64,000 nucleotides of DNA, taken from NCBI GenBank assembly GCA_964496505.1, contig CAZBZV010000001.1, positions 117,209-181,208 on the forward strand. The letters run 5' to 3'. The translations under genes and the position numbers were made by a program. The DNA comes from an uncultured Ignavibacteria bacterium (GTDB taxonomy: Bacteria; Zixibacteria; MSB-5A5; JAABVY01). The notes beneath the pieces are model-generated. The model saw only the letters and a program-made list of their open reading frames with translations. It searched no databases and was not told the origin of the DNA. Below are positions 4,120 through 55,400 of the stretch, piece after piece. The number at the start of each line of letters is the position of its first letter. The stretch's first letter is position 1.

Positions 4120-4144
4120 GTAGAGGATGGATTGATTAAAATGT

Positions 4145-4158: not shown

Positions 4159-4274
4159 ATGGGGAGCAGCCAACATTCACCTGCTGTGTTTCTTTTCAAA
4201 ATCGGACGTAGCAGTTGAAAAATATTATGCCCGCCCGTTGGGTGGGATACAAAAGGTACAAAATGATTTCCCAG

Positions 4275-4355
4275 GGTGACCCAATCTTTAGATTGGGTAA
4301 GGGCTTTCGCCATATGAATATTCCTCCCAAGCTGAAGCTTGGTGCACCCGGGCAA
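4275..4355. repeat. ~80-bp hairpin-pair dispersed repeat (ggtgacccaatcttYagattggg ... cccaagctgaagcttggYRcacccRggcaa), copy 1
   Basis: Two short perfect hairpins ~40 bp apart; same two-hairpin unit recurs at 7491..7571; second hairpin recurs inverted at 45981..46005. Confidence 0.75.
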
Positions 4356-4363
4356 ACTTATCC

Positions 4364-4439
4364 TGTCATTCTGAGCGTAGTGAAGAATCTTTTTGAATCG
4401 TGCGAGATTCTTCGGTCGTTTCACTCCCTTAGAATGACA
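4364..4439. repeat. 76-bp imperfect palindromic element with 12-bp terminal inverted repeats tgtcattctgag/cttagaatgaca (copy 1)
   Basis: Second copy ~85% identical at 4905..4980. Internal gaatct/agattc and gtgaa/ttcac pairings give a long bulged hairpin/cruciform. Confidence 0.8.
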
Positions 4440-4458
4440 TCAATAGCATATATAAAAT

Positions 4459-4851
4459 ATGATCAGGTTCGAATTTACAGTTGAGGGGACGCCGATCTCG
4501 CAACAGGCCAAAAAGCGGCGCGTTCTTAATCAATGGAAGGCACAGGTGCGCAACACTGCACGCAAGTACTGGCCTCATAAACAGCCCCCGACCAGGGATC
4601 AGATTCGTATGACCCTGACGTATTTTTATAAATTCGAAGCTCTGGATGTTGACAATATGATCAAGCCGATTCAGGATGCCTTGATCGGACTGGTCTATAA
4701 TGATGATAAGCAGATCACCGATGTTTACAGCCGCAAGCGCAAACTTAATACGAGCTTTCGTTTGTTGAACGTCTCGCCGGCAATTGCACGCGGACTTGCC
4801 AGTGGCCGGGAGTTTTTGCATGTGCTGATCGAAGATGCAAGGATGGTATAA
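4459..4851 (+). CDS. rusA: RusA-family Holliday junction resolvase (endodeoxyribonuclease RusA)
   Basis: 130 aa; 'DVDNMIKPIQDALIGLVYNDDKQI' matches the RusA catalytic D-x-DN...DAL...Y-DD-Q signature. No SD; ATG immediately follows TATAAAAT (possible leaderless transcript). Confidence 0.8.
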   Translation: MIRFEFTVEGTPISQQAKKRRVLNQWKAQVRNTARKYWPHKQPPTRDQIRMTLTYFYKFEALDVDNMIKPIQDALIGLVYNDDKQITDVYSRKRKLNTSFRLLNVSPAIARGLASGREFLHVLIEDARMV

Positions 4852-4860
4852 AATAATTGC

Positions 4861-4874
4861 AGCCCACCTGAAAG
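4861..4874. repeat. 14-bp direct repeat agcccacctgaaag (copy 2)
   Basis: Identical to 4145..4158. Confidence 0.6.
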
Positions 4875-4904
4875 GGCTTGTTGGAAAAGTATGTTGATTT
4901 AATC

Positions 4905-4980
4905 TGTCATTCTGAGCGAAGCGAAGAATCTGCATGATTCGTGAAAGATTCTTCGGTCGTTTCACTCACTCAGAATGACA
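4905..4980. repeat. 76-bp imperfect palindromic element (copy 2), TIRs tgtcattctgag/ctcagaatgaca
   Basis: Near-identical to 4364..4439; the two copies bracket rusA. Confidence 0.8.
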
Positions 4981-5004
4981 GTACAAGGGCATTTTAAAAA
5001 ATAT

Positions 5005-5664
5005 ATGGCGCAGCGAAAAACAGACAGAGAACGCAAACGGATCACCGCAATCGCGCGGGAGTATGCCGAGAAGGGGTATGATGTTAATGTCAGCCCGAAT
5101 CGTGATGAGCTCCCGGAATTTCTGCAGAACTTCCGTCCTGATATCGTTGCCACAAGCTACAACGAAAATGTTGTGGTGGAGGTCAAGGCGGGAAAGAATC
5201 TGGTCAAGTCGCCATATCTTCCCAAGCTGGCCAAGGCTATCGAGGAAAACGAGTGCTGGCGTTTCGAGATGGTGGTCACCAATCCGCGCCGCAAGAATGA
5301 ACCGATTGAAGATGATATCGATGTCCTGAATAAAGGGGATATCATAAAGCGTATCGATGAGATAAAACATCTTCTGGAAATAGGGCAGATCGAGGCGGCG
5401 ATTCTTTTGGGATGGTCGGCAATCGAGGGCACGCTCAGGCTTCTGGCAAAAAAAGAAAGAGTTAAGATAAAGCGACGGACGCCCTCATACGTGGCTAAAA
5501 AGATGCTCAACCTGGGAATCATCACTCAGGAGGATCATGACATCCTTCATGACGCCATCGAACTCCGCAACGCAGTTATCCACGGCTACAAAACGGCCCA
5601 GGCCGATTCGGGTGTGGTGGTGGATATGCTGGCGATAGTGGAAAAATTATTGACAGATTTATAA
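5005..5664 (+). CDS. fusion protein: N-terminal Hjc/AHJR-like PD-(D/E)xK nuclease-fold domain + C-terminal HEPN domain (Rx4HxY)
   Basis: N-part 'ERKRITAIAREYAEKGYDV...RPDIVATSYNENVVVEVKAGKN' matches the E...G+xV...PDIxA...EVK pattern of archaeal Hjc/restriction-endonuclease fold. C-part 'IELRNAVIHGY' is a canonical HEPN R-x4-H-x-Y motif. Start moved to ATG 5005 because 4975 lies inside the palindromic repeat. Confidence 0.6.
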   Translation: MAQRKTDRERKRITAIAREYAEKGYDVNVSPNRDELPEFLQNFRPDIVATSYNENVVVEVKAGKNLVKSPYLPKLAKAIEENECWRFEMVVTNPRRKNEPIEDDIDVLNKGDIIKRIDEIKHLLEIGQIEAAILLGWSAIEGTLRLLAKKERVKIKRRTPSYVAKKMLNLGIITQEDHDILHDAIELRNAVIHGYKTAQADSGVVVDMLAIVEKLLTDL

Positions 5665-5948
5665 AACTGCTGGCAAAAGCCTGAACAATTTACATGCAGT
5701 ACAAAATAACCTTATGAGACGCAGTTCATTCCGAATCCGTCCTGGGCAATTCTAATCTCTAACGGTAATCAGACTCTCTCTTATATGAGTCAGTTCTCCT
5801 AAAGTGATTATTGGATCCGGTCGATGAATTAAGGGTGAAAATAAATGCTGGAGATATTTGTTGGAGCAAATGTCTTCCGTTATCATCCTCTGTAGTGACA
5901 CCGCGGAAAAAATCATAGAATAAAAAATAAGTAGGGAAAGAGGTTTTT

Positions 5949-6218
5949 ATGGCTCTATCAAGATGTCTCGAGCGGCACTCGCCGCCCAAAAGCAATCGAT
6001 ATGTTTCTTATGCGTTTCCATTAGGCTATCCAAACTCATCGACAATCTGTGGAAATCCAAACTGTCAAAATCCCGGAGTCATATGGCTAAAGAGAGATGA
6101 GAAGGGCAAGTACCAAAATGGAATGAGGTTCTTTTCATACGATTCGCATGTTGCCAGTGTAAGAGTAGGTGACCAAAATATAAAGACACTTCAGACTAGA
6201 ATAGATAACGAATCTTGA
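5949..6218 (+). CDS. hypothetical small Cys-containing protein (possible zinc ribbon: C..H / CGNPNCQNPG)
   Basis: 89-aa ORF with good SD (GGAAAGAGG, 8 nt upstream); no recognisable family. Confidence 0.35.
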   Translation: MALSRCLERHSPPKSNRYVSYAFPLGYPNSSTICGNPNCQNPGVIWLKRDEKGKYQNGMRFFSYDSHVASVRVGDQNIKTLQTRIDNES

Positions 6219-6231
6219 GAGGAGGAAAAAA

Positions 6232-7164
6232 ATGGGAGGCGTCAGACTGATGAAATCCATAGTTTTAGGATTTTTATTATTATTTACGCTCAGTGTGGCC
6301 TGTAGCCTGAGCAAAGAGGAAGCCGAGGCCAGAGAAGCCGCACGGCAAGTTAGAGTGTTTTTTGATAACATTTTGCAGAAGGGCGACTTGAAAACTGCTT
6401 ATGGAATGCTTTCGGCAGATACAAGGGTGACATGGCTTATGTATGGCGGAGAATACTATAATTCAATTGTTACAGCTGTTATAAGGGATGATAGCGAAAC
6501 CCTGCCGGATAACGTTAAACTCATTAGGGAAGCAGTCGCTGAATTTACCCCCGTACCTATGAACTTGATTCGTTATGAAATTGGTAATCCGAAATATTTT
6601 AATGATTCTGCCATAGTGCCCATAACTTTTTGTGTCGCTTCGGTACCTGAATTAGACCAACTTTTTGATTCATTTATAGAGATGGTCGAAAATAACAATT
6701 TTAATGATATGACTTACAATATGAAAAAGGAGACGATTGTATGGACAGCCCAAAAAATTAAAAGTGCCGTTAAGGACAAAACCTTTGAAATGCAGGTAAA
6801 AGCTAGAGATATAACATTAATCAAAGAAAATGGAAAATGGAAACTATCACTCGCTGAAAGCCCTGAAACTGCGTTAAAACAGAACAAGACCGAAGAAGCC
6901 CAGCTTGTCTTAAAGCAGATCTATATAATGCAGCGCACATACAGAAAGCAGTTTGATACCTATTCGGAAGATTTGATGGCTTTAGGTGTTGAAATTCCCT
7001 GGAACGCCCGGTATGATTATTCAATAGTCTCGTTTGACTCTACCACATTCGTGGCTCAGGCACATTTGTCTTCTCCGGGTGTCGACGATGACCCCACTCC
7101 TGACACCTGGACAATTGATCAAGACGGGAGTATCATGCATGTGTCGAATGATATAACAAACTAA
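6232..7164 (+). CDS. lipoprotein with C-terminal pilin/pseudopilin-like segment
   Basis: Strong SD GAGGAGG. Signal peptide with lipobox LSVAC. C-terminal 'EAQLVLKQIYIMQRTYRKQFDTYSEDLMALGVEIP' resembles the N-terminal helix region of type IV pilin-like/GspG proteins. Confidence 0.55.
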   Translation: MGGVRLMKSIVLGFLLLFTLSVACSLSKEEAEAREAARQVRVFFDNILQKGDLKTAYGMLSADTRVTWLMYGGEYYNSIVTAVIRDDSETLPDNVKLIREAVAEFTPVPMNLIRYEIGNPKYFNDSAIVPITFCVASVPELDQLFDSFIEMVENNNFNDMTYNMKKETIVWTAQKIKSAVKDKTFEMQVKARDITLIKENGKWKLSLAESPETALKQNKTEEAQLVLKQIYIMQRTYRKQFDTYSEDLMALGVEIPWNARYDYSIVSFDSTTFVAQAHLSSPGVDDDPTPDTWTIDQDGSIMHVSNDITN

Positions 7165-7186
7165 ATAGTGGGCATTTACATTGGTA

Positions 7187-7220
7187 AGGTGTTGGCAAGA
7201 AAAGAGTCAACACCTTTCTT
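7187..7220 (+). terminator. bidirectional stem-loop terminator (ggtgttg...caacacc + TTTCTTATTT)
   Basis: 7-bp stem, 13-nt loop, T-rich tail on + strand; sits between converging lipoprotein gene and small minus-strand ORF. Confidence 0.5.
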
Positions 7221-7315
7221 ATTTCCAATAGTATTACCATTTATAATATTTAACATTATCAAAATCACCGAAAGATCTACCGCTTGATGCTCTTCTCGAC
7301 ATCGCCCAGCATCTC

Positions 7316-7390
7316 TAAAAGATTGGCAGCGACAAAGCCCGCAATTGCGAGCGCAACCATAATAATGATTATTATCAGAACGACATTCAT
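7316..7390 (-). CDS. candidate 24-aa hydrophobic peptide MNVVLIIIIIMVALAIAGFVAANL
   Basis: Hand translation of minus strand; near-consensus SD AGGAGGGG 6 nt upstream of ATG. Entirely hydrophobic single helix; below ORF-track size cutoff. Confidence 0.25.
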
Positions 7391-7490
7391 AGCCCCTCCT
7401 CTAAGGATTTGAATTTAAACTAACATTTTTGTATGGAGAGGTCAAGATTAAACAACGGGAGAGATTTTTGGGGGTGGCAAATAATCTCAA

Positions 7491-7571
7491 GGTGACCCAA
7501 TCTTCAGATTGGGAAGTTATTTTAATAAGCAAACCATTTATCCCAAGCTGAAGCTTGGCACACCCAGGCAA
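7491..7571. repeat. ~80-bp hairpin-pair dispersed repeat, copy 2
   Basis: ggtgacccaatcttcagattggg ... cccaagctgaagcttggcacacccaggcaa; matches 4275..4355 block-for-block. Confidence 0.75.
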
Positions 7572-7584
7572 TGACAGGGTGGCA

Positions 7585-7646
7585 CGCCCAAACTGGCTTT
7601 GGGCGGGTAGAAAATATTTAACCTGCCCAAACGAAGTTTGAGCAGG
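7585..7646. repeat. two further small palindromes (cgcccaaactggctttgggcg; cctgcccaaacgaagtttgagcagg)
   Basis: Same cccaaa/tttggg-type stem design as the neighbouring repeat family. Confidence 0.5.
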
Positions 7647-7828
7647 CCACCCGGATGATGCTTTCGGCCGATTATCCTTGAAATGACATTTTATAGCGGT
7701 AGGGCAGAATCCAAGCGAATCGCAGTGATCAAATTTTCAATACCAAAAAAATAGTCAGAACCACTTCGTTTTACTTAGGGTTCTGACCTACTCTTTTCTT
7801 CATAATATGTTGTGCTTTAATTCGATTC

Positions 7829-8746
7829 CTAATAAAACGCCAATGAAGCCGGGAGGTAGCATTCATCGTTGGCAAATGGACGGTCGCTCATTAAAAGTTC
7901 GTTTTCTTCCAGCTTGAACTTGTTCCTGAACAAAAAGTCAAGCACAGAACCATTACTCCCCGGCACCCATACCATCAGCTTTTCGAATTTCTGAGCGCGC
8001 ATGTAATTTATCGTTTCCGCCAGGCAGGGGATAAGGTACTTCGGTTTAGACACGGCTACCGGAGCAATCACACTGTCCCTTGTAATCCAGGTATATCCCA
8101 CCGGGCGGCCGCGGTATTTGTAAATAAAGCCGTGAACAAACTCGCTGTCTATCCAGAATTTATGATCCTCGGGACGGCATACCCCGCGGTTGGGCAGATC
8201 GAATTTATTCAAAATCGGAATCTGATCGTAATCCTCGATCGGCACAGCCTCCAGATCATAATCGGTCTTAATCTTTTGCACCCGCTTTTTCTTATCATAG
8301 GTCCAGGACATCATGGGCAGCATCTGAATCGGATACATCCCGAACTGAGCGTAAAGCTGAACAGCAAACGGATTGAAGGCAAAAGTCGCCAGTGAACGGG
8401 TATGGATTTCAGCCTCCTTATCGAAATTATATACGCGCTTTAATAACTTCCTGCCGATGCCCTTACCCTGGAAGCGTTGATCGGTAAAAAGATGCGCAAG
8501 ATACCAGTGGCCGTCGCGGATCATAGCCGAGGCATACCCCACCATCCGGTTGCCGGAAAATGCTCCTATCGTGCCGCCCGGATCGGTCCTGAGCAGATGG
8601 CACATCATCGTATTACGGGCGCGTCTCGGTTTATATGGCACCGGCGGCATGCTGTGGGTTTCACGCAGACGATTCATGGTGCGCATGACCAGCCGTTCGG
8701 CCAGCCGTGTATCATCAGGTTTTATCTTTCTTATGCTGAGTTTCAT
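7829..8746 (-). CDS. GNAT-family N-acetyltransferase with C-terminal extension
   Basis: 'FTDQRFQGKGIGRKLLKRV' acetyl-CoA binding Q/R-x-x-G-x-G/A motif. Confidence 0.75.
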   Translation of the reverse strand: MKLSIRKIKPDDTRLAERLVMRTMNRLRETHSMPPVPYKPRRARNTMMCHLLRTDPGGTIGAFSGNRMVGYASAMIRDGHWYLAHLFTDQRFQGKGIGRKLLKRVYNFDKEAEIHTRSLATFAFNPFAVQLYAQFGMYPIQMLPMMSWTYDKKKRVQKIKTDYDLEAVPIEDYDQIPILNKFDLPNRGVCRPEDHKFWIDSEFVHGFIYKYRGRPVGYTWITRDSVIAPVAVSKPKYLIPCLAETINYMRAQKFEKLMVWVPGSNGSVLDFLFRNKFKLEENELLMSDRPFANDECYLPASLAFY

Positions 8747-8994
8747 ATCAACCTCCCGGCGTTATTTCAGGTCTCTCCTTTTGACGATAATTACAGAGAG
8801 AGGTTTCAAAATGGGGTCAATCAACCGATTAATAATAAAAAGGAACCTACGCGCCGGATTGTCAACAAGAATAAAATGGCTAAAAAGCCCCAAAATATAG
8901 GCGGTTTTGTGCGTTTCATTTATAAGTTTTTATTGACTATTGCGAGATGGCCGGTAAATTATATCTTTTTAAGGTGTCATAACGGCGGTTGGCT

Positions 8995-9510
8995 ATGTTA
9001 AACAGGAATGTTCTTATCTTAAATCAGAATTATGAACCGTTGACTGTGTGTTCAGTCAAGAGGGCTGTTGTTATGATGTTATTGGGCAAAGTAGAAATGA
9101 TCGAGACAATGGACGGACATTTGCTGCATTCAGTCAGCGCGGCTATACGAGTTCCCTCGGTGGTGAGGCTGGGCTTTTATGTCAAGGTCCCGCGCAAGCG
9201 TATATTTCTTTCGCGCAAAAATATTATCAAGCGCGACGGGCATAAATGCATGTATTGCGGACGTACCGACGGTGCCATGACGGTGGATCATGTTGTGCCC
9301 AAGCGTATGGGCGGCAAGGATACCTGGGAGAACCTGGTTTGCGCCTGCACTAAATGCAATAACCGCAAGGGTGACCGTACCCCCGAGCAGGCCAATATGA
9401 CATTGATAAAAAAGCCTAAAAAACCCAATCATCTCATGTTCATACAACGGTTTATCGGAATATCCGACGACAACTGGAAGCCCTATTTGTTTATGGAGGA
9501 TTTTCATTAG
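8995..9510 (+). CDS. HNH endonuclease-family protein
   Basis: 'HKCMYCG...DHVVPKRMGGKDTWENLVCACTKCNNRKG' HNH/zinc-finger signature; start taken at ATG 8995 (track start 8989 is TTG). Confidence 0.85.
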   Translation: MLNRNVLILNQNYEPLTVCSVKRAVVMMLLGKVEMIETMDGHLLHSVSAAIRVPSVVRLGFYVKVPRKRIFLSRKNIIKRDGHKCMYCGRTDGAMTVDHVVPKRMGGKDTWENLVCACTKCNNRKGDRTPEQANMTLIKKPKKPNHLMFIQRFIGISDDNWKPYLFMEDFH

Positions 9511-17952: not shown

Positions 17953-17970
17953 TTGGGCATGCACCTTGCA
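17953..17970 (+). promoter_or_regulatory. candidate sigma54 (-24/-12) promoter upstream of the flagellar operon
   Basis: gGGCAtgcaccTTGCA: GG and GC spaced exactly as in TGGCAC-N5-TTGCA; ~45 nt upstream of ylxF-like ATG. Confidence 0.35.
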
Positions 17971-18013
17971 AAGAGATTCATTGAGTAAATTTATTTTTTG
18001 TGGGAGACCATAT

Positions 18014-18694
18014 ATGGCTGATGAATTGGAAGGTAAGGAGCCCGCAATTGAAGAACCCGAACAAACCAAATCAGGATCGGCAGCTTTGAATAAAACAACA
18101 ATTTTAATCGGCGTTGTAACTTTTGTGGTCTTCATGGTAGTGTTTGTAATGCTGGGCGGCAATTCCACCCCGCCCGAGGAGACACAAACCGCAGAAGCAG
18201 TGGAGGATTCCACAGAAACCAAAGAAGAGCATGCCGCTTATGAGGATGAGGATGTCTCACCCGACGGGTGGCATGAAGAGTATTCTGATTATCCCTTTAA
18301 AGAAGGAGGTGATGAAGAGGATTCTGCTATGAGCGAAGAGGATTCCATTGAACATGTTGAATGGTACAAAGCTCAGAAGCAGGAAATCGACAGAGAATTA
18401 GCGAAAGTGAGGGCCGAGTCCGCGCAATTGCAGCAGTTAAAGATGGAGACCAAAGCTCTTCTGGAAAGAAGGAAGCAGCTCGAGGAAACTAATATCGCGA
18501 ATTTGGCCAAGTTGTTTGAAACTATGGACGCGGATGAAGTTGCTAATATCATGGAGAACATACCCAATCCGAAAGTGGGTCTGATACTTCAGAAGATGAA
18601 GAAGCAGAACGCTTCCGAAGTTATGGCACAACTTCCCGCAGAAAGGGCAGCAAAAATATCTATGGAACTAATTGACCTGGGAGGCGAATTTTGA
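18014..18694 (+). CDS. ylxF: flagellar-operon protein with MgtE-N-like domain (B. subtilis YlxF-like), single TM helix and acidic linker
   Basis: C-terminal 'LAKLFETMDADEVANIMENIPNPKVGLILQKMKKQNASEVMAQLPAERAAKI' is MgtE_N-like; position immediately upstream of fliK as in Bacillus. Confidence 0.6.
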   Translation: MADELEGKEPAIEEPEQTKSGSAALNKTTILIGVVTFVVFMVVFVMLGGNSTPPEETQTAEAVEDSTETKEEHAAYEDEDVSPDGWHEEYSDYPFKEGGDEEDSAMSEEDSIEHVEWYKAQKQEIDRELAKVRAESAQLQQLKMETKALLERRKQLEETNIANLAKLFETMDADEVANIMENIPNPKVGLILQKMKKQNASEVMAQLPAERAAKISMELIDLGGEF

Positions 18695-20430
18695 TGCAGG
18701 CCAACATGAAAATGCTTGATTTGCTTGCAGCTCTCATTCCCGGCAATAACCATCTCAACCAGGGCAAAGCGGCCGCAGGAGAAGATAACGGCGGCCTGAT
18801 GTTCTTTGATGTGCTTAATGCTATCACGGAACTGAACCAGAAGGGCGGAAAGAATCCTATGAATTCCGGCTTTCTCAATCCTGACGAGATGGATTTAATT
18901 GCCTCGATGATGGCTGATGGCGGCAAATCTAAAGCTGCGCCTGTTATTATACCCCTTTCAGAGGGAGAAAACAGATTCGTCTCATTAAATCCCGTTGAAT
19001 CAGGATTAATAAATCCAAAAGACATAGATGGTTTTTTGACAGATTCAGCGGTTAAGGCAGAACAGTCTGCCGATTCAAAATCATTGATTCTGGAAAATAT
19101 CCCAGCCACCCCAAGAGGTTCTTCGGACTATTTTATTCCTGCTGATTCAGATATTCAGCAAATATTTTCAATGGATAAGGCCAAAGACAGTCAGCGTTTT
19201 TTGCCGGTAATGGAGATCGCATCTCTGGAAGAGCTGCAAAATTTCAAGCCGGGCGAAAGACTGACATTAAGTATGCCTTTGAATGAAACCGGTCAAGCCG
19301 AAGAAATCAGTTTAATTAAGACCGGTAAAACGGAATCAATGGGAGGCAGGGAGTTTACCAAACTGGAAGTCGAGATTCTCTCCGGCGATAAGCTTTCCAA
19401 ATTGGATGCAGTCATGATTGGGGACAAAGACTCGGGCTCCGGTCAAAAGACTCTTGGCGATCTTTTAGGACGCCTCGAGCAGACCAACGGCCGCGAGGCC
19501 AAACTGGTGGTCTTTGTGCCTGAGGATGCGAAGATGGAACCGCTCAGGAATCATCTCAACCTGCAAAAGGAGCCTTCATTGAAGACCGACAATGCTGCAC
19601 AGGCTGTCAGGACTCAGGAGGTTTCGGGAAGATTTGTCGGCGATGATGCTCTGGCGCAGCTAAGACAACTGGAGATGAGAGAATCCAACCCGGACAAAAA
19701 CAACACGATCTTTAAAGAAGAGGCTGTCTCTCAGGATGACAGACGGCTCAATCTTGCCATAGGAAATGAAGGCAATTCCAAATTCAACCAAAACATGAGC
19801 AACCAGAACTTAAACAACGGCAGTGCAATGAAATCGGCATTTGACTTTGCCAACCCGCAGGGATTATCGGGCGAATCATTTTCCGATAAAATGGGAGAGA
19901 TGCAGTCGAGTGCGTCGACCGACAACAGCGCCGGCCGTGTTGCCGAGGGTATGAAAGCGGATATGCCGGAAATGAGGGACTTATCCCAGTTCAGGAATGT
20001 GGAATTCAAGCTGGAGCCGCCCAAAGGCGGAACCAGGATTCCCGAAGGCGGATATTTCCGGATTAAGCTGGAACCAGAATCTCTCGGCAAAATCGATGTG
20101 GAACTGAGGGTTGAGCATGACAAGCTGGTTGCCAGAATGAAGGTCGACACACCGTTGGCACGACAGGTTGTTGAGGCAAATCTGCCGCAGCTCCGCGAAT
20201 CGCTGCATCAAAACGGCATTAAGGCGGAAAATATAGTGGTTGATCTCAATAGCAATGCCAACAATTCCGACCATAATCCGGAAAACAGCAAAGCCGCTCA
20301 GAACCAGATGTTCCGCAATCTCAGGAACCGGAATTTGGGATTGGAGCCGGATGACGTTCAGAATCTGACGGAGATACCGGCAGCAAATTGGAATTTGAAT
20401 CTAAGAGGAAATCTTTCTCTGTTAGCATAG
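18691..20430 (+). CDS. fliK: flagellar hook-length control protein
   Basis: Long low-complexity central region plus C-terminal FliK domain 'FRIKLEPESLGKIDVELRVEHDKLVARMKVDTPLARQVVEANLPQLRESL'. Confidence 0.8.
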   Translation: MMQANMKMLDLLAALIPGNNHLNQGKAAAGEDNGGLMFFDVLNAITELNQKGGKNPMNSGFLNPDEMDLIASMMADGGKSKAAPVIIPLSEGENRFVSLNPVESGLINPKDIDGFLTDSAVKAEQSADSKSLILENIPATPRGSSDYFIPADSDIQQIFSMDKAKDSQRFLPVMEIASLEELQNFKPGERLTLSMPLNETGQAEEISLIKTGKTESMGGREFTKLEVEILSGDKLSKLDAVMIGDKDSGSGQKTLGDLLGRLEQTNGREAKLVVFVPEDAKMEPLRNHLNLQKEPSLKTDNAAQAVRTQEVSGRFVGDDALAQLRQLEMRESNPDKNNTIFKEEAVSQDDRRLNLAIGNEGNSKFNQNMSNQNLNNGSAMKSAFDFANPQGLSGESFSDKMGEMQSSASTDNSAGRVAEGMKADMPEMRDLSQFRNVEFKLEPPKGGTRIPEGGYFRIKLEPESLGKIDVELRVEHDKLVARMKVDTPLARQVVEANLPQLRESLHQNGIKAENIVVDLNSNANNSDHNPENSKAAQNQMFRNLRNRNLGLEPDDVQNLTEIPAANWNLNLRGNLSLLA

Positions 20431-43321: not shown

Positions 43322-43936
43322 TTGCAATTGGATAACAAGATCATAATTCTGGCGGCATCATTGGGCGGGCCGCCTCTGGTGAATGATATCCTTTCCGGTC
43401 TGCATCCATCATTCGATTTGCCAGTTATGGTACTCCAGCAGATGGAGTCCGATTTCTCCGAGCCTTTAACCCAGGCCTGGAGCAAAACATCCGCACTTCG
43501 AGTGGTAAGATTGTCCGAGGAGGAGGAGATCAGATGCGGCAGCGCCTATGTAATTCCCTATGCTGTTTTTCCCGTATTCTCGAAACATGTTGATGGAATG
43601 AAAGCTCATTCCAGCACTCTGGAAGCGGGCCAGGATGTCAATAATCAATGGGCCAGAGCTATCAAGGAATCGGTTAATGAATACGAGGTTATTCTGGTGC
43701 TGCTGTCCTACATAGGTCTGGATGTATATCAGCTTCATGATTCCCTCGATCTTCTGCGCGAGGGGGAGGGAGTAATCATAAGATGTGTCCCTTCCGGTGA
43801 GAATGATGATGCGCATATTTTTGATGATTCGGATGATGCGGCGTGGCTAGACATGGATATCGATCAGATCGTGGAATATCTGAACAGAATTTCTAGGAGT
43901 AAGTACATATCGGCCAGAAGCGAATCTGGTCATTAG
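43322..43936 (+). CDS. CheB-methylesterase-like domain protein with His->Gln at the catalytic triad position and acidic C-terminal tail
   Basis: 'IIILAASLGGPPLVNDILSGLHPSFDLPVMVLQQMESDF...RVVRLSEEEEIRCGSAYVIPY' aligns to CheB 'IAIGASTGGTEAI...LLITQHMPPGF...[20 protein letters not shown]'. Ser of GASTGG is retained; QHM is QQM here. TTG start. Confidence 0.65.
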   Translation: MQLDNKIIILAASLGGPPLVNDILSGLHPSFDLPVMVLQQMESDFSEPLTQAWSKTSALRVVRLSEEEEIRCGSAYVIPYAVFPVFSKHVDGMKAHSSTLEAGQDVNNQWARAIKESVNEYEVILVLLSYIGLDVYQLHDSLDLLREGEGVIIRCVPSGENDDAHIFDDSDDAAWLDMDIDQIVEYLNRISRSKYISARSESGH

Positions 43937-43968
43937 AATATTTATATTGTTGGTATGGAGGCTGGAAG

Positions 43969-44373
43969 ATGGATGATGCTGTTATACTGGTAGTGGATGA
44001 TGAAGAGATGCTTCGCAAACTCCTCTTCAAAATCCTCGATAAGGAGGGATACAATGTACTCCTGGCGTCATCAGGCAGGGAAGCGCTGGATATACTATCC
44101 AGGGAACGAGTGGATCTGATAGTTACTGATGTTAAGATGCCCGAAATGGATGGCTTTGATCTTTTGAAAAAGGTCAAAGAGAAATATTCGCGCATCGGCG
44201 TTATAGTGATGACGGCATTTGGAGATGCCTATACTGTCAGAGACGCACTGCTTCTCGGCGCGGATGAATATATTACGAAACCGTTTAAGAGCTTCGAGAT
44301 TGTAATGGTCGTCGAGCGGGCGCATTGGAGAATACAATCCTCAAGTCCAAAAGAGGAGTCACCGAAGGCATAA
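43969..44373 (+). CDS. single-domain response regulator (CheY-like receiver)
   Basis: 'VILVVDDEEMLRKLL...LIVTDVKMPEMDGFDLLKKVK...EYITKPF'. Confidence 0.85.
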   Translation: MDDAVILVVDDEEMLRKLLFKILDKEGYNVLLASSGREALDILSRERVDLIVTDVKMPEMDGFDLLKKVKEKYSRIGVIVMTAFGDAYTVRDALLLGADEYITKPFKSFEIVMVVERAHWRIQSSSPKEESPKA

Positions 44374-44436
44374 TAAAAAAAAGGGGCATCCGCAGGATTT
44401 AGATCAGCGGGAAAAGGGCAGAAAGCGGGGAAACCC

Positions 44437-45936
44437 ATGGTACGTGTGACAGACGATATGAAGCTGGCCAAAGTAGATGAGGCATTTAAAATAACTGTGT
44501 CTCATGACAAGCTGCAGGCCTATCTTCGGATTGATTCGGAAAAATTTGAGAATAAGGAACTTACCCCGGAAGTAATTATGGCCAACCTGAAGGCCGCAGG
44601 GGTGGATTTCGGCTTTAAAGAAGATGAGATTCAAAGAATTGTCTCCGAGCTGGTTTTTAATGAGCGCGTTTTAATCGCCGAGGGCCTCCCGCCTCAGACC
44701 GGTAAATCCGCCGAGTTCGAATTCTGTTTTGATCCGGAAAGAAAAGTCGCACCCAAAGAGGGCAGCGACGGCCGTATCGACTACCGTGACATGGATTTTC
44801 TCCAAAACGCCGAACCCGGCCAGGTTCTGATAAAAAAGATTCCCCCGGTCGATGGCACTCCCGGAAAATCAGTAAAAAATGAGGAAATTCCTGCCAAGCC
44901 GGGCAAAGATAAGAAACTGCCCAAAGGCGCTAATACCGATATATCTCCGGACGGCCTCACACTTTCGGCCGAAAAGGCCGGTACAATCGTGTACGCCGGC
45001 GGCATAGTGAGTATCCAGCCGGTGACTGCCATTTCCGGCAGCGTCGATATTTCCACCGGAAATATAACCTGCAAGGGATCGCTGAAGGTGGGCAAGGATA
45101 TCAAGTCCGATTTCAAGGTCGTTGTGAATGGCAACCTTGAAGTCAACGGCAATGTTGAGGATGCCGAGATAGATTGCAAGGGCAATGTCATTGTCAAAGG
45201 CGGTTTCATCGGCAGGGGGGACGGTTGTATCAATGCCGAGGGTGATGTCACCCTGAAATATATTATCAATCAGACTATAAACTCCAGAGGCAATGTCACT
45301 ATTGGCGGCGAGGCGGTTAACGCCAAAATTCATGCCCGTGACAGGATCGAAATGATCGGTTCCAAAGCAAAGGTCGTGGGGGGATGTATGACTGCGCGAA
45401 GGCTAATCAAGGGCGTGACGCTTGGCGCTGATGCTGGAACCAACACGGTGCTAAAAGTCGCGTACGATACGAAGCTTATGGAGCATTATCGCCAGGTCCA
45501 GTCGGAGATTGAGAGGCTCAAGGAAGATGAAAAGCGGGTCAAGGCCGCGCTGGTCGATCTATACCGTTTGCATATGAACAAAAAGCTTCCGCCTCAGAAA
45601 CAGGCTGTTATGAAAAAGCTGGAGGAGTTCAAGAAGAGCCTTCCGGCCCAGTTCGAGGAACTCGACGTTCAGAAAAAAGAGCTGGACAAAAAGATGGCAG
45701 AGTTCAAGAATGCCAAGGTGATCGCCGAGAAGGATGTATATCCCGGAGTGCAGGTTCATATCGGCAAGCAGTACAAAGAATCCGACAGCGTGCGCGGACC
45801 GATGATCTTCGAATTATACAGCGACAGCATAGTGGCATCATCCTACGATAAACAATCGTACGAAGCCAAGGAGAAAGCGCGCAGGGACAAAGAGCAGAAG
45901 GCGCGCCAGGCTCTTGAAGCAGCAGAAAACAGATAA
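44437..45936 (+). CDS. FapA (flagellar assembly protein A, DUF342) family protein
   Basis: N-domain, central beta-helix repeats (GNVxVxGxV... x several) and C-terminal coiled coil, as in DUF342/FapA. Confidence 0.7.
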   Translation: MVRVTDDMKLAKVDEAFKITVSHDKLQAYLRIDSEKFENKELTPEVIMANLKAAGVDFGFKEDEIQRIVSELVFNERVLIAEGLPPQTGKSAEFEFCFDPERKVAPKEGSDGRIDYRDMDFLQNAEPGQVLIKKIPPVDGTPGKSVKNEEIPAKPGKDKKLPKGANTDISPDGLTLSAEKAGTIVYAGGIVSIQPVTAISGSVDISTGNITCKGSLKVGKDIKSDFKVVVNGNLEVNGNVEDAEIDCKGNVIVKGGFIGRGDGCINAEGDVTLKYIINQTINSRGNVTIGGEAVNAKIHARDRIEMIGSKAKVVGGCMTARRLIKGVTLGADAGTNTVLKVAYDTKLMEHYRQVQSEIERLKEDEKRVKAALVDLYRLHMNKKLPPQKQAVMKKLEEFKKSLPAQFEELDVQKKELDKKMAEFKNAKVIAEKDVYPGVQVHIGKQYKESDSVRGPMIFELYSDSIVASSYDKQSYEAKEKARRDKEQKARQALEAAENR

Positions 45937-50163: not shown

Positions 50164-50214
50164 ATTGTTTTTGCTTGACACTCGATAATCAAAGCATATT
50201 TTAATTCACAAGAC

Positions 50215-50395
50215 ATATAGCCGGTGCATTCAGCCTAACAGGGAAGGCGGTGAGAGTCCGCCACAGCCCCGCTACTGTATGCGCGCTACTGGAGCTTGAA
50301 CCGCAAGTGCGGATTAGCCACTGTCGCAAGATGGGAAGGCCTCAGGCTCCGGGTCTGATGCCGTAAGTCAGGAGACCTGCCGGTTATGAAAGGCA
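50215..50395 (+). ncRNA. cobalamin (B12) riboswitch
   Basis: GGTGC...GGGAAGGCGGTGAGAGTCCGCCACAGCCCCGCTACTGT...GCCACTG...GGGAAGGC...GCCGTAAGTCAGGAGACCTGCC (B12 box); 35 nt upstream of btuB-like start. Confidence 0.9.
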
Positions 50396-50428
50396 AATTT
50401 AAACCTTGCGCGGGCGAGGGAAGTCTTT

Positions 50429-52666
50429 ATGGCCGAAAAAACTTCAAAGCTTCTTTCGCCGGGAATAAAACCGGCATTTTTATTTCTCCTATCTTTATTA
50501 ATATATCCGGCCCTGATTTATTCTCAGTCCGGGCTTTCCCTTTGGGGGCAAATTACCGATTCTGAATCCGGCCTTCCTGTCGAAGATGCTATCGTCCGGC
50601 TGATTCCCGAAGGGCGCACAACAAGCAGCAACAAGGACGGCATCTATCGATTTTTTAATCTCAAATATAAATCTGCGACAATAGAGATTAAAGCGGAAGG
50701 ATATGAATCCCTGAAAAGAGAGGGATTGACGCTCGATGATGCTCTGGCATCAAGGCGGGACTTTGCGCTTGCAACGCGGCTCTTTTATGATCAGGATCAA
50801 ATCGTAATCGGAGAAGTTGAGGTTGAACAGCCCGGGAAGATCATAATCGATGAAAGCTCGCCCGAATTCAAAAACGCCCGCACGCTCTCGGAGATTCTGG
50901 AATATATACCCCGGGTGATTGTGGCGCAATCGGGCGGATCGAATCAGACCGCCTCGATTTCAATCGGAGGGGCGCCTGCCAAACATACCGGAATATATAT
51001 CGATGGCATGCCGGTAAACTCGCATCTAACCGGCGAATTTGACCTGAACAGCATTCCTAAACAGGCGGTAAAGCGGATCGAAGTCTATACCGACGGTGCG
51101 GCCGCCGAGATGGGCGCGGGTTCTCTGGCAGGAGCGGTCAATATCATCACACGAAAAGCGGCCTTTCAGGGTGAATTTGGATTCGATCAGAATATCGGCA
51201 GTTATAATTCCGATGAAACCAATCTGACGGTGCAGAATATCTTCCATGAGAAGCTTTCCGGCCTGTTTATATTCTCCAGAAACACCGCATCCAACGACTT
51301 CAAGTATGACGATCCGAAAGCGGGAGAGATAAGACGGCAGAACAATTATCGCGATCTCGACAGCAAATACGCCAGCCTGAATTATAAAATCAATCAGCAT
51401 GATAATATATACATGAATTTCTCTTATGTCCACTCAAGAGCCGGATTGCCGGGAGCGGTGTATTCGCTCACCCCCAGTGCGGAAAAATCGGAATCTTTTC
51501 GGACATGGAATCTGGGTGCGGATTTATCGCCGCTGGATAATCTTATGCTGGCGGTTTCAACGCAGCATTACCTCTCTCATCAGCATTTCACCGATTACGA
51601 CACCTTTATTCCATACGACAGCAAATATCGCGACAGCAGACTCAGTTTTAATATAAATCCGAAGTATATAATCAGTCCCGATCATTATCTCTCAGCCCGC
51701 CTGAACCTGAGTTTCGACCGTTTCCGGCAGGGGTATATGCTTAATGAAGATCAGGATCCAATCGAAGTTAATGAGGATCGGGTTCAATCGAATATAAGCT
51801 ATGATGGGCGTATGGCATTAGAAAAACCTGCACTGTTTTTCGATTACCTGAATTTGAAGCTGGCTTTCTCACAAACCGCATCCGACCTTTATCGTCCGCT
51901 TATTTCTCCTCTCATACGAGCAGATTTGGAAAAAGGCGATGCGAATAAGATGATCTTGTATGCGGCCTATGCCAATTCATACCGCGCGCCCACTTATGCC
52001 TCGCTTTTCTGGAGCGAGGATGCTTTCTCGGTCGGTAATCCCAATTTGCTGCCGGAAAAGTCTGAGGACTTTTCGACTGGCTTGCGGCTTATTTTCAGAC
52101 GTGCCGGAATCTGGAACCTGGGAGTTGAGTACGAGCATTCATTTATAAAGGATCTGATATATTGGGAGCGGCGTTTTGACGGCAAGTATGCGCCGCGCAA
52201 TCTCTCTGCCGCCCGAGTATCGTCGGTTATATGGAATGTGGAATGGAAATCGTATGATGATATTGTAGGCATTTCCCTTTCCCACACACTTTCCGATCCC
52301 AGGGACCGAAGCTGGGAGCCGAATCAGCATGATAATATCCTGACTTTTCGTCCCCGCAAAATCACTGATCTAAAGCTCAGCTTCAATCCGGGGGTGGTCT
52401 TTGTCTCGATGCAGACAAGATGGGTGTCGGAGCGCTATATCCGACGGGCAAATACTAAAGCCCTGAGTAAATATTCGGTCACTGATCTCAAGGCGGGAGT
52501 AAATCAGAAAATCGGCAAATTCGAAATATCTTTAAACGCTAAAGTAGACAACCTCTTTTCAGAAGAATACGAAATCCTCGAGCGCTACCCGCTGCCCGAG
52601 AGGTCCTACGGCCTTGGGGTTGGACTTACCTATAATTTTGAATCCGGGGGAAGAAATGAAAAATAG
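50429..52666 (+). CDS. btuB: TonB-dependent outer-membrane receptor (BtuB-like) with N-terminal carboxypeptidase-regulatory-like domain
   Basis: Signal peptide; CarbopepD_reg-like 'GQITDSESGLPVEDAIVRL...TSSNKDGIYRF'; plug domain 'SGGSNQTASISIGGAPAKHTGIYIDGMPVN'; 22-strand barrel-sized C-region; downstream of B12 riboswitch. Confidence 0.85.
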   Translation: MAEKTSKLLSPGIKPAFLFLLSLLIYPALIYSQSGLSLWGQITDSESGLPVEDAIVRLIPEGRTTSSNKDGIYRFFNLKYKSATIEIKAEGYESLKREGLTLDDALASRRDFALATRLFYDQDQIVIGEVEVEQPGKIIIDESSPEFKNARTLSEILEYIPRVIVAQSGGSNQTASISIGGAPAKHTGIYIDGMPVNSHLTGEFDLNSIPKQAVKRIEVYTDGAAAEMGAGSLAGAVNIITRKAAFQGEFGFDQNIGSYNSDETNLTVQNIFHEKLSGLFIFSRNTASNDFKYDDPKAGEIRRQNNYRDLDSKYASLNYKINQHDNIYMNFSYVHSRAGLPGAVYSLTPSAEKSESFRTWNLGADLSPLDNLMLAVSTQHYLSHQHFTDYDTFIPYDSKYRDSRLSFNINPKYIISPDHYLSARLNLSFDRFRQGYMLNEDQDPIEVNEDRVQSNISYDGRMALEKPALFFDYLNLKLAFSQTASDLYRPLISPLIRADLEKGDANKMILYAAYANSYRAPTYASLFWSEDAFSVGNPNLLPEKSEDFSTGLRLIFRRAGIWNLGVEYEHSFIKDLIYWERRFDGKYAPRNLSAARVSSVIWNVEWKSYDDIVGISLSHTLSDPRDRSWEPNQHDNILTFRPRKITDLKLSFNPGVVFVSMQTRWVSERYIRRANTKALSKYSVTDLKAGVNQKIGKFEISLNAKVDNLFSEEYEILERYPLPERSYGLGVGLTYNFESGGRNEK

Positions 52667-53900
52667 ACAAACACTGATAACATTGGCATCGATCATTTTG
52701 CTTCTGGTTACCTCTTCCGGATTGCACGCTGATGAATTAATCGTGATAAACAGTCTCGGGGAAACATTGAGCAAAATCGATCTTGAAACCGGAACGGTGG
52801 ATAATAATTTCGTGACCGTGGGATTGATTCCGAATGCCATTGTTTGCGATGGCGATAGGGCCTATGTGGCAAATTCCGGTTCGGATGATTTATATATAGT
52901 TGATCTGGAAAGCGAGACAATTGAGGATATAATAGATCTCGGCTCAGGGCGAAATCCGTGGTCCTTGAGCTTTTTGGACGACAGTACGCTCCTTGTTACG
53001 AATTTTATCTCCAGTACAATTTCAAAGGTGAATATAAATACGAGGACTGTGGTTGGTGAATGGGCTGTCGACACCCGTCCCCAGGGACTTATGACCATCG
53101 GGGAGAGAACCTATATTGCCATTAGCGGCTTTAATCCTGCAGATACCTCTTACGGTCCCGGATCGGTGGCAGTCTGGGACAATCAAGGCGACAGCATTGT
53201 GCAGTATATCAGCGTCGGCACCAACCCGCAAGACCTCGATATCGGTCCCGACGGAAGATTAAATATCGTCTGTACTGGAAATTATGAGGGGCTGCCGGGG
53301 ATGCTCTATGTGGTTGATACTGCCAGCCTGAGCGTGGCGGATTCATTTCAGACCGCTACCACATTTTTCCCGCCTTCTGATATTGTTGTAACGAGTGATG
53401 GCATCGGCTTTCTTGCGGCCGGGGGCTGGATAGATAAGGGAGAGGTCTATACATTCGATCCTGTAAATTCCGTAATGCTTCACGACCAGAACAATCCGCT
53501 TACCACCGGCCTGGGAGTGATTGCGGTTTCGAAGGCCACCGACAGCACTATTTTCAGCTATAATTTCGGCGCTGATAATATAACCGAGATGGATTCCTCT
53601 GGGCTGATTCTCAATACCTATAATGTGGGTGATGGTCCACAAACCGGCGATATCCGTATCACCGCCCCGGATTATATTTGCGGAGATGTGAATGATGATA
53701 TGGCCGTTAATGTCAGCGACGCGGTTTTTGTGATCAATTATGTCTTCATCGGGGGAGAGGCGCCCGCTCCACTGGAATCCGGAGATACCAATTGCGATAC
53801 TGCTGTTAATGTCAGCGATGCGGTCTGGATTATCAATTATGTATTTATCGGCGGAAAAGCGCCCTGCGATACCGACGGGGATAATATTACGGACTGTTAG
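52656..53900 (+). CDS. secreted YVTN-type beta-propeller protein with two C-terminal dockerin-like repeats
   Basis: Signal peptide MKNRQTLITLASIILLLVTSSGLHA; repeated ~40-aa blades (...YVANSGSDDLYIVD..., ...LLVTNFISSTISKVN..., ...YIAISGF...); tandem 'GDVNDDMAVNVSDAVFVINYVFIGG'/'GDTNCDTAVNVSDAVWIINYVFIGG'. Confidence 0.7.
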   Translation: MKNRQTLITLASIILLLVTSSGLHADELIVINSLGETLSKIDLETGTVDNNFVTVGLIPNAIVCDGDRAYVANSGSDDLYIVDLESETIEDIIDLGSGRNPWSLSFLDDSTLLVTNFISSTISKVNINTRTVVGEWAVDTRPQGLMTIGERTYIAISGFNPADTSYGPGSVAVWDNQGDSIVQYISVGTNPQDLDIGPDGRLNIVCTGNYEGLPGMLYVVDTASLSVADSFQTATTFFPPSDIVVTSDGIGFLAAGGWIDKGEVYTFDPVNSVMLHDQNNPLTTGLGVIAVSKATDSTIFSYNFGADNITEMDSSGLILNTYNVGDGPQTGDIRITAPDYICGDVNDDMAVNVSDAVFVINYVFIGGEAPAPLESGDTNCDTAVNVSDAVWIINYVFIGGKAPCDTDGDNITDC

Positions 53901-54416
53901 GCTTTATATCTGAATCCGTCAGGTAACAATCCCGTCTTGGACGGGATCAGGACCTGATGAAACCAAGAATACTCAAGCATATTTCATAAATCCATTCGAT
54001 TTCGTTTCAAGAATATGCAAAATGTTGCATATTAACTTAAGATAAATGCCGAATAGCCAATAGAATTTTAGATTCTTCTCGTACTAAATTATGGAGCCTG
54101 GGTGGCAGGATACTCCCATAAGTACTAACCTTATGCAGCATTGTAAAATACGCTTTTAACTTAAAGCAGTTCTAAAATATAGATAAAGCACTTCCGTTTT
54201 TAGTGCTAAGGCATGCGAGTTGCTTTTGTTTCATAGTGAAAATATGGAATGGAACTTCTGACAAATTTAGGGAGTGGTGTGTGCTGTTAATCAGCCACCT
54301 GACGGTAGAGTCGGGCATCCCCCCTCCACCACTCCCTAAGCTTTTATCCCCGCAGAAATTAACAATCGAAATCAGAACGCAATTGACATTTAATGAGATT
54401 TTGGTGAAATTGCGGG

Positions 54417-55400
54417 ATGCTTTTCGAATCGATCAAAGATATTGTCAAAATCTTCTCTCTGCCTGAAGGCAATCCGTTAGATGACGAAAATCGAACGCTT
54501 GCGCAAATCTGCGGATTTTCAGGAAATGACAGACTCCTCATAGTCAATGCCGATGATTTTGGTCTCTGCTCAAGCACCAATCGGGCGGTTGCAGAGCTTA
54601 TCGATAAAGGGGTGGTCAATTCAGTCTCAATGTTCGCATCGGCGGAAAACACTGATGAAGGCCTCAAGCTTCTGGGGGAGAGAGAACAATCCACCGGAAT
54701 TCACTTGACCCTGACCTCAGAGTGGGAAAATCATGTGCTGTCTCCTGTTCTGCCTGCGGAAAAGGTGCAATCCCTGCTAAATGGCTCGGAGCAGTTTTAT
54801 TCCGAGATTAAGCATCTCTACCTGACCGCTGATAATGATGAAATAGAGGCTGAATGCCGGGCCCAGATTAATCGCATGCTTGACTCGGGGATTATAATCG
54901 ATCATCTGGATACCCATATGGGCGCTATGCAGCTCAGGCCGGATTTCGTGGAAATATATCTCAAACTGGCTTCGGAATATAATCTGCCAGTGCGCATGGG
55001 CTCTCAAAGCCTGGCACAGCTTATGGGGCTTCCGGCTGAACAACTGGATAATGCCAGAACGATGGGGCTGGCATTTCCGGATAATCTGATTTATATCCCG
55101 ATGTCATTTACGCCCGACAAGGAAATCCGCTTCCGGGCTTATGAATATGCTATACAGAATATTCCCTCCGGAATTGCGGAGATATACTTTCATCCTACTT
55201 ATAATGGCGATGATTTTAAAGCGCTTCAGCATGAATATTCGAAGCGTAAAGATATCAGCTATGAATCGATCAGGCTCTGGGATTATGAATTTTTGGCCGA
55301 TGGATGCCTGAGTCGAATTCTGGAAGAGGAAGAAATAAAGCTGATTTCTTATGCGGATTTGATGAAAGTTCAGCGGGAAACACTTAAAGTAAAAGATTAA
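54417..55400 (+). CDS. YdjC/ChbG-family carbohydrate deacetylase-like protein
   Basis: 'RLLIVNADDFGLCSSTNRAVAELIDKGVV' YdjC signature and His-rich 'DHLDTHMG'. Confidence 0.75.
   Translation: MLFESIKDIVKIFSLPEGNPLDDENRTLAQICGFSGNDRLLIVNADDFGLCSSTNRAVAELIDKGVVNSVSMFASAENTDEGLKLLGEREQSTGIHLTLTSEWENHVLSPVLPAEKVQSLLNGSEQFYSEIKHLYLTADNDEIEAECRAQINRMLDSGIIIDHLDTHMGAMQLRPDFVEIYLKLASEYNLPVRMGSQSLAQLMGLPAEQLDNARTMGLAFPDNLIYIPMSFTPDKEIRFRAYEYAIQNIPSGIAEIYFHPTYNGDDFKALQHEYSKRKDISYESIRLWDYEFLADGCLSRILEEEEIKLISYADLMKVQRETLKVKD

Follow-up and report, generated by a model that had tools for sequence, protein, structure and literature searches.

Most microbes need vitamin B12 (cobalamin) and few make it, and the mode of its capture shapes microbial communities. 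To our knowledge, propeller-assisted capture of the vitamin has been studied only in gut Bacteroides. There the surface protein BtuG, a beta-propeller, forms a stable lid on the transporter BtuB (PMC10404256). A BlastP survey of 313 gut genomes described BtuG as exclusive to Bacteroidetes (PMC6143338), and a review of 2026 continues to present it as a gut Bacteroidota trait (PMC13616437). Here we describe a locus of a Zixibacteria genome in which a single cobalamin riboswitch precedes two genes, the first for a TonB-dependent receptor and the second for a secreted propeller. The locus lies in a stretch of 64,000 nucleotides (positions 117,209 to 181,208 of contig CAZBZV010000001.1; the window, to which coordinates refer unless another locus is named), and close homologues carry the annotation candidate division Zixibacteria. 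We report the riboswitch, the receptor architecture, the overlap of the two genes, the fold of the propeller as modelled by AlphaFold2 and the conservation of the three-part unit. The propeller looks like an environmental counterpart of the Bacteroides surface protein BtuG with another anchoring device, and we consider it likely that the pair serves a B12-repressed, propeller-assisted capture of corrinoids and their hand-over to the BtuB-like receptor.

The locus had been singled out in an earlier note written from the DNA letters (the original prediction), which proposed that the propeller does the job of BtuG as an independent solution, tethered through its dockerin-like tail to a cohesin-bearing scaffold. 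The top-ranked literature on BtuG and the phyla of the Fibrobacterota-Chlorobiota-Bacteroidota (FCB) group did not mention BtuG, and the work found for BtuG together with type IX secretion concerns the BAM complex (beta-barrel assembly machinery). New here is a BtuG-like propeller in a phylum without a reported BtuG, equipped with a different anchoring device.

Riboswitch, receptor and propeller as one unit

The Rfam model RF00174 (Cobalamin) matched positions 50205-50398 of the forward strand over its full length (model 1-189 of 189) with 93.1 bits, against a gathering score of 31.5, and an E-value of 7.6e-22. The aptamer has a long P6 extension, and its B12 box, AGTCAGGAGACCTGCC, reads at 50367-50382 (+). 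It ends 30 nucleotides before the receptor's ATG at 50429 on the same strand, and so forms the leader of a B12-related gene. The original prediction had correctly placed a B12 riboswitch ahead of the receptor, at a distance that it gave as 35 rather than 30 nucleotides. Within the expression platform (50399-50428, +) a ribosome-binding site, AGGGAAG, can be read at 50417-50423. Because a terminator scan of 50398-50429 found no intrinsic terminator between aptamer and ATG, the riboswitch is presumed to act on translation initiation of the receptor gene. In RNA folding the 3' side of P1 paired weakly with the start-codon region (z -1.4), and we dropped the idea of a specific switching helix in the platform in view of this weak signal. 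A terminator-like hairpin with a T-run (GCCGGGAATAAAACCGGC ATTTTTATTT) occurs at 50458-50475, 30 nucleotides past the start codon; it sits in the region coding for the receptor's signal peptide, and we took it to be a chance occurrence. Upstream of the aptamer, a consensus scan returned a candidate sigma-70-like promoter at 50175-50202 (+; TTGACA, 16 nucleotides, TATTTT; 10 of 12 matches), whose one further point of support is its site 3 nucleotides before the aptamer.

The receptor gene (50429-52666, +) encodes 745 residues including a signal peptide. Pfam assigned to it an N-terminal CarboxypepD_reg domain (residues 38-114, nucleotides 50540-50770; 44.8 bits, cutoff 32.3), a Plug domain (residues 146-236, nucleotides 50864-51136) and a TonB-dependent barrel (residues 261-709, nucleotides 51209-52555), all on the forward strand, which bears out the earlier description of a TonB-dependent receptor with an N-terminal carboxypeptidase-regulatory domain. 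The best-scoring NCBIfam models were two BtuB equivalogs (TonB-B12/BtuB). Compared by sequence with solved structures, the receptor matched an uncharacterised TonB-linked receptor first (9gbc_A, 1.3e-16), followed by E. coli BtuB and by BtuB3 and BtuB2 of B. thetaiotaomicron. In the functional sense of the name BtuB, a plug and barrel architecture is found here under a cobalamin riboswitch. Judged by its domains, matches and leader, the receptor is a BtuB-like outer-membrane transporter. It is also colinear over its full length with the receptors that adjoin propeller homologues elsewhere (23-70% identity). In one of these loci (L001, from the metagenome-assembled genome ACK-K077), the match of the orthologous receptor is split in two near residue 598-611 (locus positions ~6593-6604), which may be a frameshift or an assembly error.

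The second gene was listed as an open reading frame (ORF) of 428 residues starting at TTG 52614, the length given in the original prediction. Its true start is probably ATG 52656, which shortens the protein to 414 residues, because the ribosome-binding site GGGGGAAG lies in front of this codon, because a clean signal peptide results (MKNRQTLITLASIILLLVTSSGLHA, followed by DE), and because a database protein of 414 residues (P0001) is 100% identical and orthologues start there too. From this start the propeller gene (52656-53900, +) overlaps the stop codon of the receptor gene by 11 nucleotides (ATGAAAAATAG), and the two genes are thus overlapping and co-oriented, as had been noted. The signal peptide (52656-52730, +) was read from the sequence and compared with the N-termini of the family. 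It is followed by a seven-bladed YVTN-type beta-propeller with BtuG-like features (residues 26-336, 52731-53663, +). An AlphaFold2 model, run with a 45-sequence alignment, reached a mean predicted local distance difference test score of 91.6 and placed the seven blades at residues 27-334 and the helices of a C-terminal dockerin-type module at residues 353-398; the propeller and the dockerin module of the original prediction are both confirmed. Beyond the gene, a ViennaRNA fold of 53901-53990 gave a GC-rich nested hairpin at 53917-53959 (+), 17 nucleotides past the propeller's stop codon. This hairpin may mark the 3' end of the operon; it has no U-tract after it and was not called by the terminator scan.

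We then fetched loci for propeller homologues that range from 91% down to ~33% identity. The order riboswitch, CarboxypepD_reg receptor, propeller was present in all 11 of the related loci with upstream sequence (a further one, L004, ends short upstream and is not counted). RF00174 matched at the orthologous position with 92-95 bits in three loci (L001-L003) and with 77-111 bits in seven others (L042, L043, L044, L046, L047, L048 and L049), and in the last (L050) a sub-threshold match to AdoCbl-II, of the RF00174 clan, lies directly before the receptor (31.5 bits, E 2.9e-5). Propeller and receptor show parallel divergence, down to 33% and 23% identity, respectively, and the trio is conserved as a unit since the flanking genes differ between loci. 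The 11-nucleotide overlap of the two genes is kept in L001 and L002, and gaps of 13-17 nucleotides replace it in L043, L046 and L048. This context strongly supports the earlier proposal that the propeller does BtuG's job, as a cobalamin-clan riboswitch, a receptor and a propeller stand together in 11 of 11 loci.

Two of these loci depart from the usual layout. In L049 the receptor and propeller genes are separated by 512 nucleotides (5488-6001), compared with the 11-nucleotide overlap or gaps of 13-150 nucleotides in the other loci. In L044 (2322-6022), the receptor is followed by a 438-residue protein of unknown type with a weak tail of the type IX secretion system (T9SS), a 339-residue lipoprotein propeller and a 440-residue tailed propeller, a layout that suggests a multi-component capture system, as in Bacteroides loci.

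The propeller family is large: an exhaustive profile search returned 1,687 representatives of 50%-identity clusters at an E-value of 1e-30 or better, a count in which giant YVTN proteins with several propellers are included. Of the top 150 family representatives, well over 100 are single-domain proteins of 330-460 residues with a full-length match.

Relationship of the propeller to BtuG

The comparison with BtuG structures that the original prediction had named as a check was made with Foldseek against the PDB. An archaeal YVTN S-layer propeller (1L0Q) ranked first, all solved BtuG1, BtuG2 and BtuG3 structures filled ranks 2-17 (E ~1e-18 to 1e-15; target TM-score mostly 0.73-0.82), and E. coli YncE appeared at rank 37. 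A further set of figures, listed without a label, reads 35.9 for 1L0Q, 35.0 for BtuG2, 34.6 for BtuG1 and 34.4 for 6-phosphogluconolactonase. A search with the profile of the propeller family returned 1L0Q at 5e-40, BtuG1 chains at 5e-19, BtuG2 and BtuG3 chains at ~1e-13 and YncE at 9e-6. Aligned with hhalign, the window family and the BtuG profile matched with Prob 99.6, a score of 180.6 and an E-value of 2e-24 over 291 in-register columns and seven blades (window residues 24-335, BtuG2 45-366). For comparison, a generic YVTN profile built from 33 sequences scored 107.8 against the BtuG profile (E 6.8e-14). The BtuG2 sequence (BT1954) used here was rebuilt from overlapping database fragments and verified by Cys32, Gln93, Asn107, Ser131, Trp149, Trp194, Ser195, Gln219 and a net charge of -18 that agrees with the published value; the row for BtuG1 is a composite in which ~13 residues were taken from a close homologue.

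By these profile comparisons, the window family, BtuG and generic YVTN propellers are members of one superfamily (YVTN/YncE), in which the window family is less derived than BtuG and measurably nearer to BtuG than the generic YVTN profile is. Whether the B12 role was inherited or acquired twice is not proven by sequence alone. The description of the propeller as not obviously BtuG-like in sequence was fair for the single sequence, and the term independent solution was too strong, given the shared superfamily, the alignment over seven blades, the BtuG structures at Foldseek ranks 2-17 and the many lipoproteins among family members.

To examine the putative B12 site, contacts of BtuG2 (10.1101/2024.02.16.580637, PMC10404256) were mapped through the hhalign alignment. 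Three polar positions, Gln93, Ser131 and Gln219, correspond to Asn60, Asn100 and Asn190 of the window propeller, conserved in 96%, 100% and 98% of the family, respectively; BtuG1 has Asn, Gln and Asn at these positions. BtuG2 Tyr239, a residue of the mobile beta5A loop, which closes over B12 (10.1101/2024.02.16.580637, PMC10404256), corresponds to Tyr210 (100% conserved). The loop around this tyrosine (TDGGYEGSP in BtuG2, CTGNYEGLP in the window protein) is an insertion common to both families and is not found in generic YVTN propellers. Overall, 5 of the 12 mapped contacts fall in columns conserved to at least 90%, compared with 32 of 311 in the background (P 0.004). The B12 contact site is thus, as far as the alignment tells, partly conserved in the window family, which is no worse than expected because the contacts common to BtuG1 and BtuG2 amount to only about 60% (10.1101/2024.02.16.580637). 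Furthermore, the propeller domain carries a net charge of -31, compared with -18 for BtuG2, whose negative charge has been proposed to attract B12 (PMC10404256).

Several results weigh against a BtuG-like role. As a single sequence, the window propeller scores no better against the BtuG profile than 1L0Q does (63.0 vs 62.6, both with E 2.3e-8), and as a family it is nearer to the generic YVTN profile (score 306.8, E 6.8e-40) than to BtuG. The window protein has no match to PF16819 (DUF5074), which is the BtuG family (PMC13398666), even at an E-value of 1; weak matches in 7 of 45 relatives (best 1e-6) were dropped as BtuG-specific evidence because generic YVTN proteins match likewise. Of the five conserved contacts, Asn107 (with Ser74 or Asn73 as its counterpart) is uninformative, being the generic YVTN-motif N, and we downgraded it for this reason. 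Neither the aromatic cage nor the N-terminal jaw is kept: Glu55, Gly56, Arg133, Trp149, Trp194 and Trp272 align with various residues at variable positions, Phe58 falls in a gap where the window loop is 5 residues shorter, and Tyr316 and Tyr335 fall in gaps as well. The signal peptide, which ends in SSGLHA before DE, has no lipobox cysteine such as a BtuG lipoprotein carries. The receptor, for its part, stays far below the cutoffs of the BtuB equivalogs (TIGR01779 and NF007926; 127 vs 599.7 bits and 104 vs 836). Finally, no btuFCD or other B12 gene was found among the ~26 window ORFs scanned against Pfam, a scan that comprised about half of the window's likely genes, with ~26 ORFs between 75-9510 and 20440-40614 outside it.

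The C-terminal module and the proposed function

The last 78 residues of the propeller protein (53664-53900, +) form a dockerin-type module with two Ca-loop repeats and four cysteines that ends in PCDTDGDNITDC at the stop codon. Pfam Dockerin_1 (PF00404) matched residues 343-396 with 38.3 bits (cutoff 22.9), and the two tandem dockerin-like Ca-binding repeats of the original prediction are both present; solved dockerins gave weak matches to the module (E ~0.01). Dozens of unrelated exported Zixibacteria proteins have C-termini with 60-79% identity to the 78 residues (YICGD...PCDTDGDNITDC), and the carriers include a protease (subtilase), arylsulfotransferases, PKD proteins, an M28 peptidase and glucose dehydrogenases (those of L005-L041 among them). 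In the 107 tblastn segments found in the fetched Zixibacteria loci (several per ORF), the module almost always ends at the stop codon or within a few codons of it. Its four cysteines are conserved and its end has the fixed form PCDxxGDxxPDC before the stop; shorter variants end in PCDC or in GDCSPGSWDGxGGDCCPF. Within the window the module occurs once, and a search of genome contigs with the whole propeller protein returned mostly matches to this tag.

Relatives of the propeller carry other devices. Two of them (P0042 and P0061) have T9SS type A sorting domains (TIGR04183, above cutoff) in place of the dockerin tag, and others have FlgD-Ig tails or a C-terminal hydrophobic stretch followed by basic residues. 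Short family representatives have a lipobox cysteine and no C-terminal tail (12 of 12 examined), and so does the lipoprotein paralogue of L044, with its cysteine at the N-terminus. In orthologous propellers the module thus appears exchangeable with a lipid anchor at the N-terminus or, at the C-terminus, with a T9SS domain or a hydrophobic tail. Since every one of these alternative devices serves the export of proteins or their retention at the surface, the module is most likely the clade's general tag for surface anchoring or sorting of exported proteins. Dockerin-like modules occur commonly in organisms that have neither cellulosomes nor cohesins. The tail is not evidence of a cohesin scaffold, and a cohesin partner is possible and not required. 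No cohesin turned up among the ~26 window ORFs scanned, and no systematic cohesin search was made; we found no paper that links Zixibacteria with dockerins.

Taken together, these results suggest the following order of events. When intracellular cobalamin is ample, the bound aptamer would block translation initiation of the receptor, and the propeller would be blocked too through translational coupling at the 11-nucleotide overlap. The acidic propeller would otherwise be exported and retained at the surface through its C-terminal tag. There it would most likely bind corrinoids in its central cavity, as its fold, its context and the partly conserved contacts suggest, and then transfer them to the transporter, of which it would probably be a lid-like partner in the way in which BtuG serves BtuB (PMC10404256).

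One alternative holds that the propeller is an evolutionarily independent analogue of BtuG, held by the binding of its dockerin to a cohesin-bearing surface scaffold. The two Ca-binding repeats with their above-cutoff Dockerin_1 match, the single sequence without BtuG-specific signal and the nearness of the family to generic YVTN proteins, which would be compatible with the convergent recruitment of a YVTN propeller, all speak for it. They are set against a shared superfamily with in-register alignment over seven blades, the insertion with the B12-contacting tyrosine common to BtuG and the window family, the lipoprotein forms common in that family, and the same operon position of the propeller gene in sister phyla of the FCB group. 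The tethering part of the proposal meets further difficulties, in that many unrelated exported proteins bear the tag as a generic module at their C-terminus, that orthologues replace it by T9SS tails or lipid anchors, and that no cohesin was seen in the ORFs scanned. We judge this alternative improbable.

The propeller might instead be released as a soluble corrinoid carrier that returns B12 to the receptor in the manner of a haemophore, without forming a stable lid. Some T9SS cargo proteins are released, and the ordinary signal peptide, the lack of a lipid anchor and the strong negative charge would fit a soluble scavenger. However, every variant of the family has a retention device, be it a lipobox, a T9SS domain, a hydrophobic tail or the dockerin-like tag, and the propeller's tight translational coupling to the receptor, at 1:1, suggests a stoichiometric partner, such as BtuG is as the stable lid of BtuB (PMC10404256). 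A soluble carrier therefore seems to us an unlikely role.

Very unlikely, in our view, is a propeller that does not bind B12 and instead either assists the structure or assembly of the receptor or works as an enzyme, on corrinoids or on some other substrate: YVTN relatives do include lactonase-type and redox-enzyme subunits, the NCBIfam and PDB comparisons gave weak similarity to hydrazine synthase beta, lactonase-type NosZ and 6-phosphogluconolactonase, and the pocket aromatics of BtuG2 are not conserved, but those similarities are at the level of the fold and far below family cutoffs, the family has no conserved metal- or cofactor-binding motif, its conserved Asn60, Asn100, Asn190 and Tyr210 coincide with ligand-contact positions of BtuG2, and the strict linkage to a cobalamin riboswitch fits ligand handling.

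Capture of corrinoids by a surface-held propeller next to its receptor remains our preferred account. A propeller partner beside a riboswitch-controlled BtuB appears to be widespread in sediment and groundwater lineages and attachable to the cell in several ways, and the family yields candidate high-affinity B12 binders that would be new. For surface display outside Bacteroidota it also amounts to a natural experiment, one that includes a possible new role of dockerin-like modules. More tentatively, and with more doubt than confidence, we suggest that BtuG-type capture is an old trait of the FCB group with interchangeable anchors rather than an invention of Bacteroidota, and that the anchor in Zixibacteria is the Cys-containing dockerin-like module, which would be a lineage-specific signal for export or surface attachment, equivalent to the T9SS domain and used without a cellulosome-type cohesin.

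Surroundings and comparison with known systems

The genes on either side of the B12 pair are unrelated to it. Upstream of the pair are a tRNA, Der and two radical-SAM proteins, of which one is RlmN; downstream follow YdjC, MutS2, a GH57 branching enzyme, a PfkB kinase and others; and farther out the window holds housekeeping, flagellar and chemotaxis genes. The B12 unit is a self-contained gene pair behind one riboswitch, as no btuFCD, cobalamin biosynthesis or cohesin genes occurred among the ORFs scanned. Two segments (17966-20430 and 43322-45936) encode a FliK-like hook-length protein, an MgtE_N/FliG-like protein, FapA and a CheB-like protein, and with its flagellar and chemotaxis genes this Zixibacteria genome encodes motility.

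The 516-nucleotide spacer before ydjC holds a conserved element at 54210-54349 (+). It comprises a sigma-54-type -24/-12 promoter (GGCATGCGAGTTGC; 54210-54223, +), a 67-nucleotide structure made of a 10-base-pair closing stem, two inner hairpins and an unpaired CAUCCCCCCUC (54270-54336, +), and a U-rich tract (54337-54349, +). The unpaired CAUCCCCCCUC is invariant and resembles an anti-Shine-Dalgarno sequence. The element is more conserved than the neighbouring proteins, both inner hairpins show compensatory changes, and it has no Rfam match. A 26-nucleotide core was found once each in at least 120 metagenome contigs and, among the matches listed, mostly in unrelated gene contexts; among these same matches, a GGYAY-N5-TTGC motif stood 36-68 nucleotides upstream of the core in 96 of 112 copies (background 2.8%), and a minority of copies had a sigma-70-like promoter and a separate terminator instead. 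The element looks like an undescribed sigma-54-dependent small RNA that is independent of the B12 unit. A gene for a YdjC-family carbohydrate deacetylase lies past the propeller, with the element in between, in the window (54417-55400) and in two distant loci of the related set (L043, 7760-8698; L048, 7687-8601), a synteny for which the small RNA or mere proximity is a more probable cause than B12.

Among described systems, the YncE/YncD pair of E. coli also sets a secreted seven-bladed YncE-type propeller beside a TonB-dependent receptor. YncE differs from the window propeller in being periplasmic and iron-regulated, without a riboswitch and without a C-terminal tag. Generic YVTN proteins, such as the Methanosarcina S-layer protein 1L0Q and those of TIGR02276, differ by their highly regular blades, are unlinked to B12 riboswitches or TonB-dependent receptors, and have neither the GxY(E)G loop insertion nor the conserved Asn beside the blade prolines.

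The tail shares with cellulosomal type I dockerins (PF00404) its two tandem Ca-binding loop-helix repeats and a match above the Pfam cutoff. In contrast to these, the window's host is no cellulosome producer, and its module has four conserved cysteines and a fixed end at the stop codon, is found on dozens of unrelated exported proteins and holds the position of T9SS domains in orthologues. Compared with BtuB of B. thetaiotaomicron, whose solved chains are shorter (690-713 residues) and, judged from that length, probably lack CarboxypepD_reg, the window receptor has this domain at its N-terminus.

The closest likeness is to BtuG1, BtuG2 and BtuG3 of B. thetaiotaomicron. Like them, the window protein is a strongly acidic, seven-bladed propeller of the YVTN/YncE superfamily whose gene adjoins that of a TonB-dependent B12 receptor in a cobalamin-riboswitch locus, the profiles align in register over all blades, and many members of the window family are lipoproteins. 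Within the site of BtuG2, the polar positions 93, 131 and 219 and the Tyr239 loop insertion are answered by family-conserved residues, whereas the aromatic cage (Phe58, Trp149, Trp194, Trp272, Tyr316) and the Glu55-Gly56 jaw are not kept. The window protein further differs from BtuG in standing outside PF16819 and in bearing a C-terminal dockerin-type tag rather than a lipobox cysteine or the lipoprotein export signal of Bacteroidota, and its host belongs to the Zixibacteria, whereas BtuG was reported to be exclusive to Bacteroidetes (PMC6143338).

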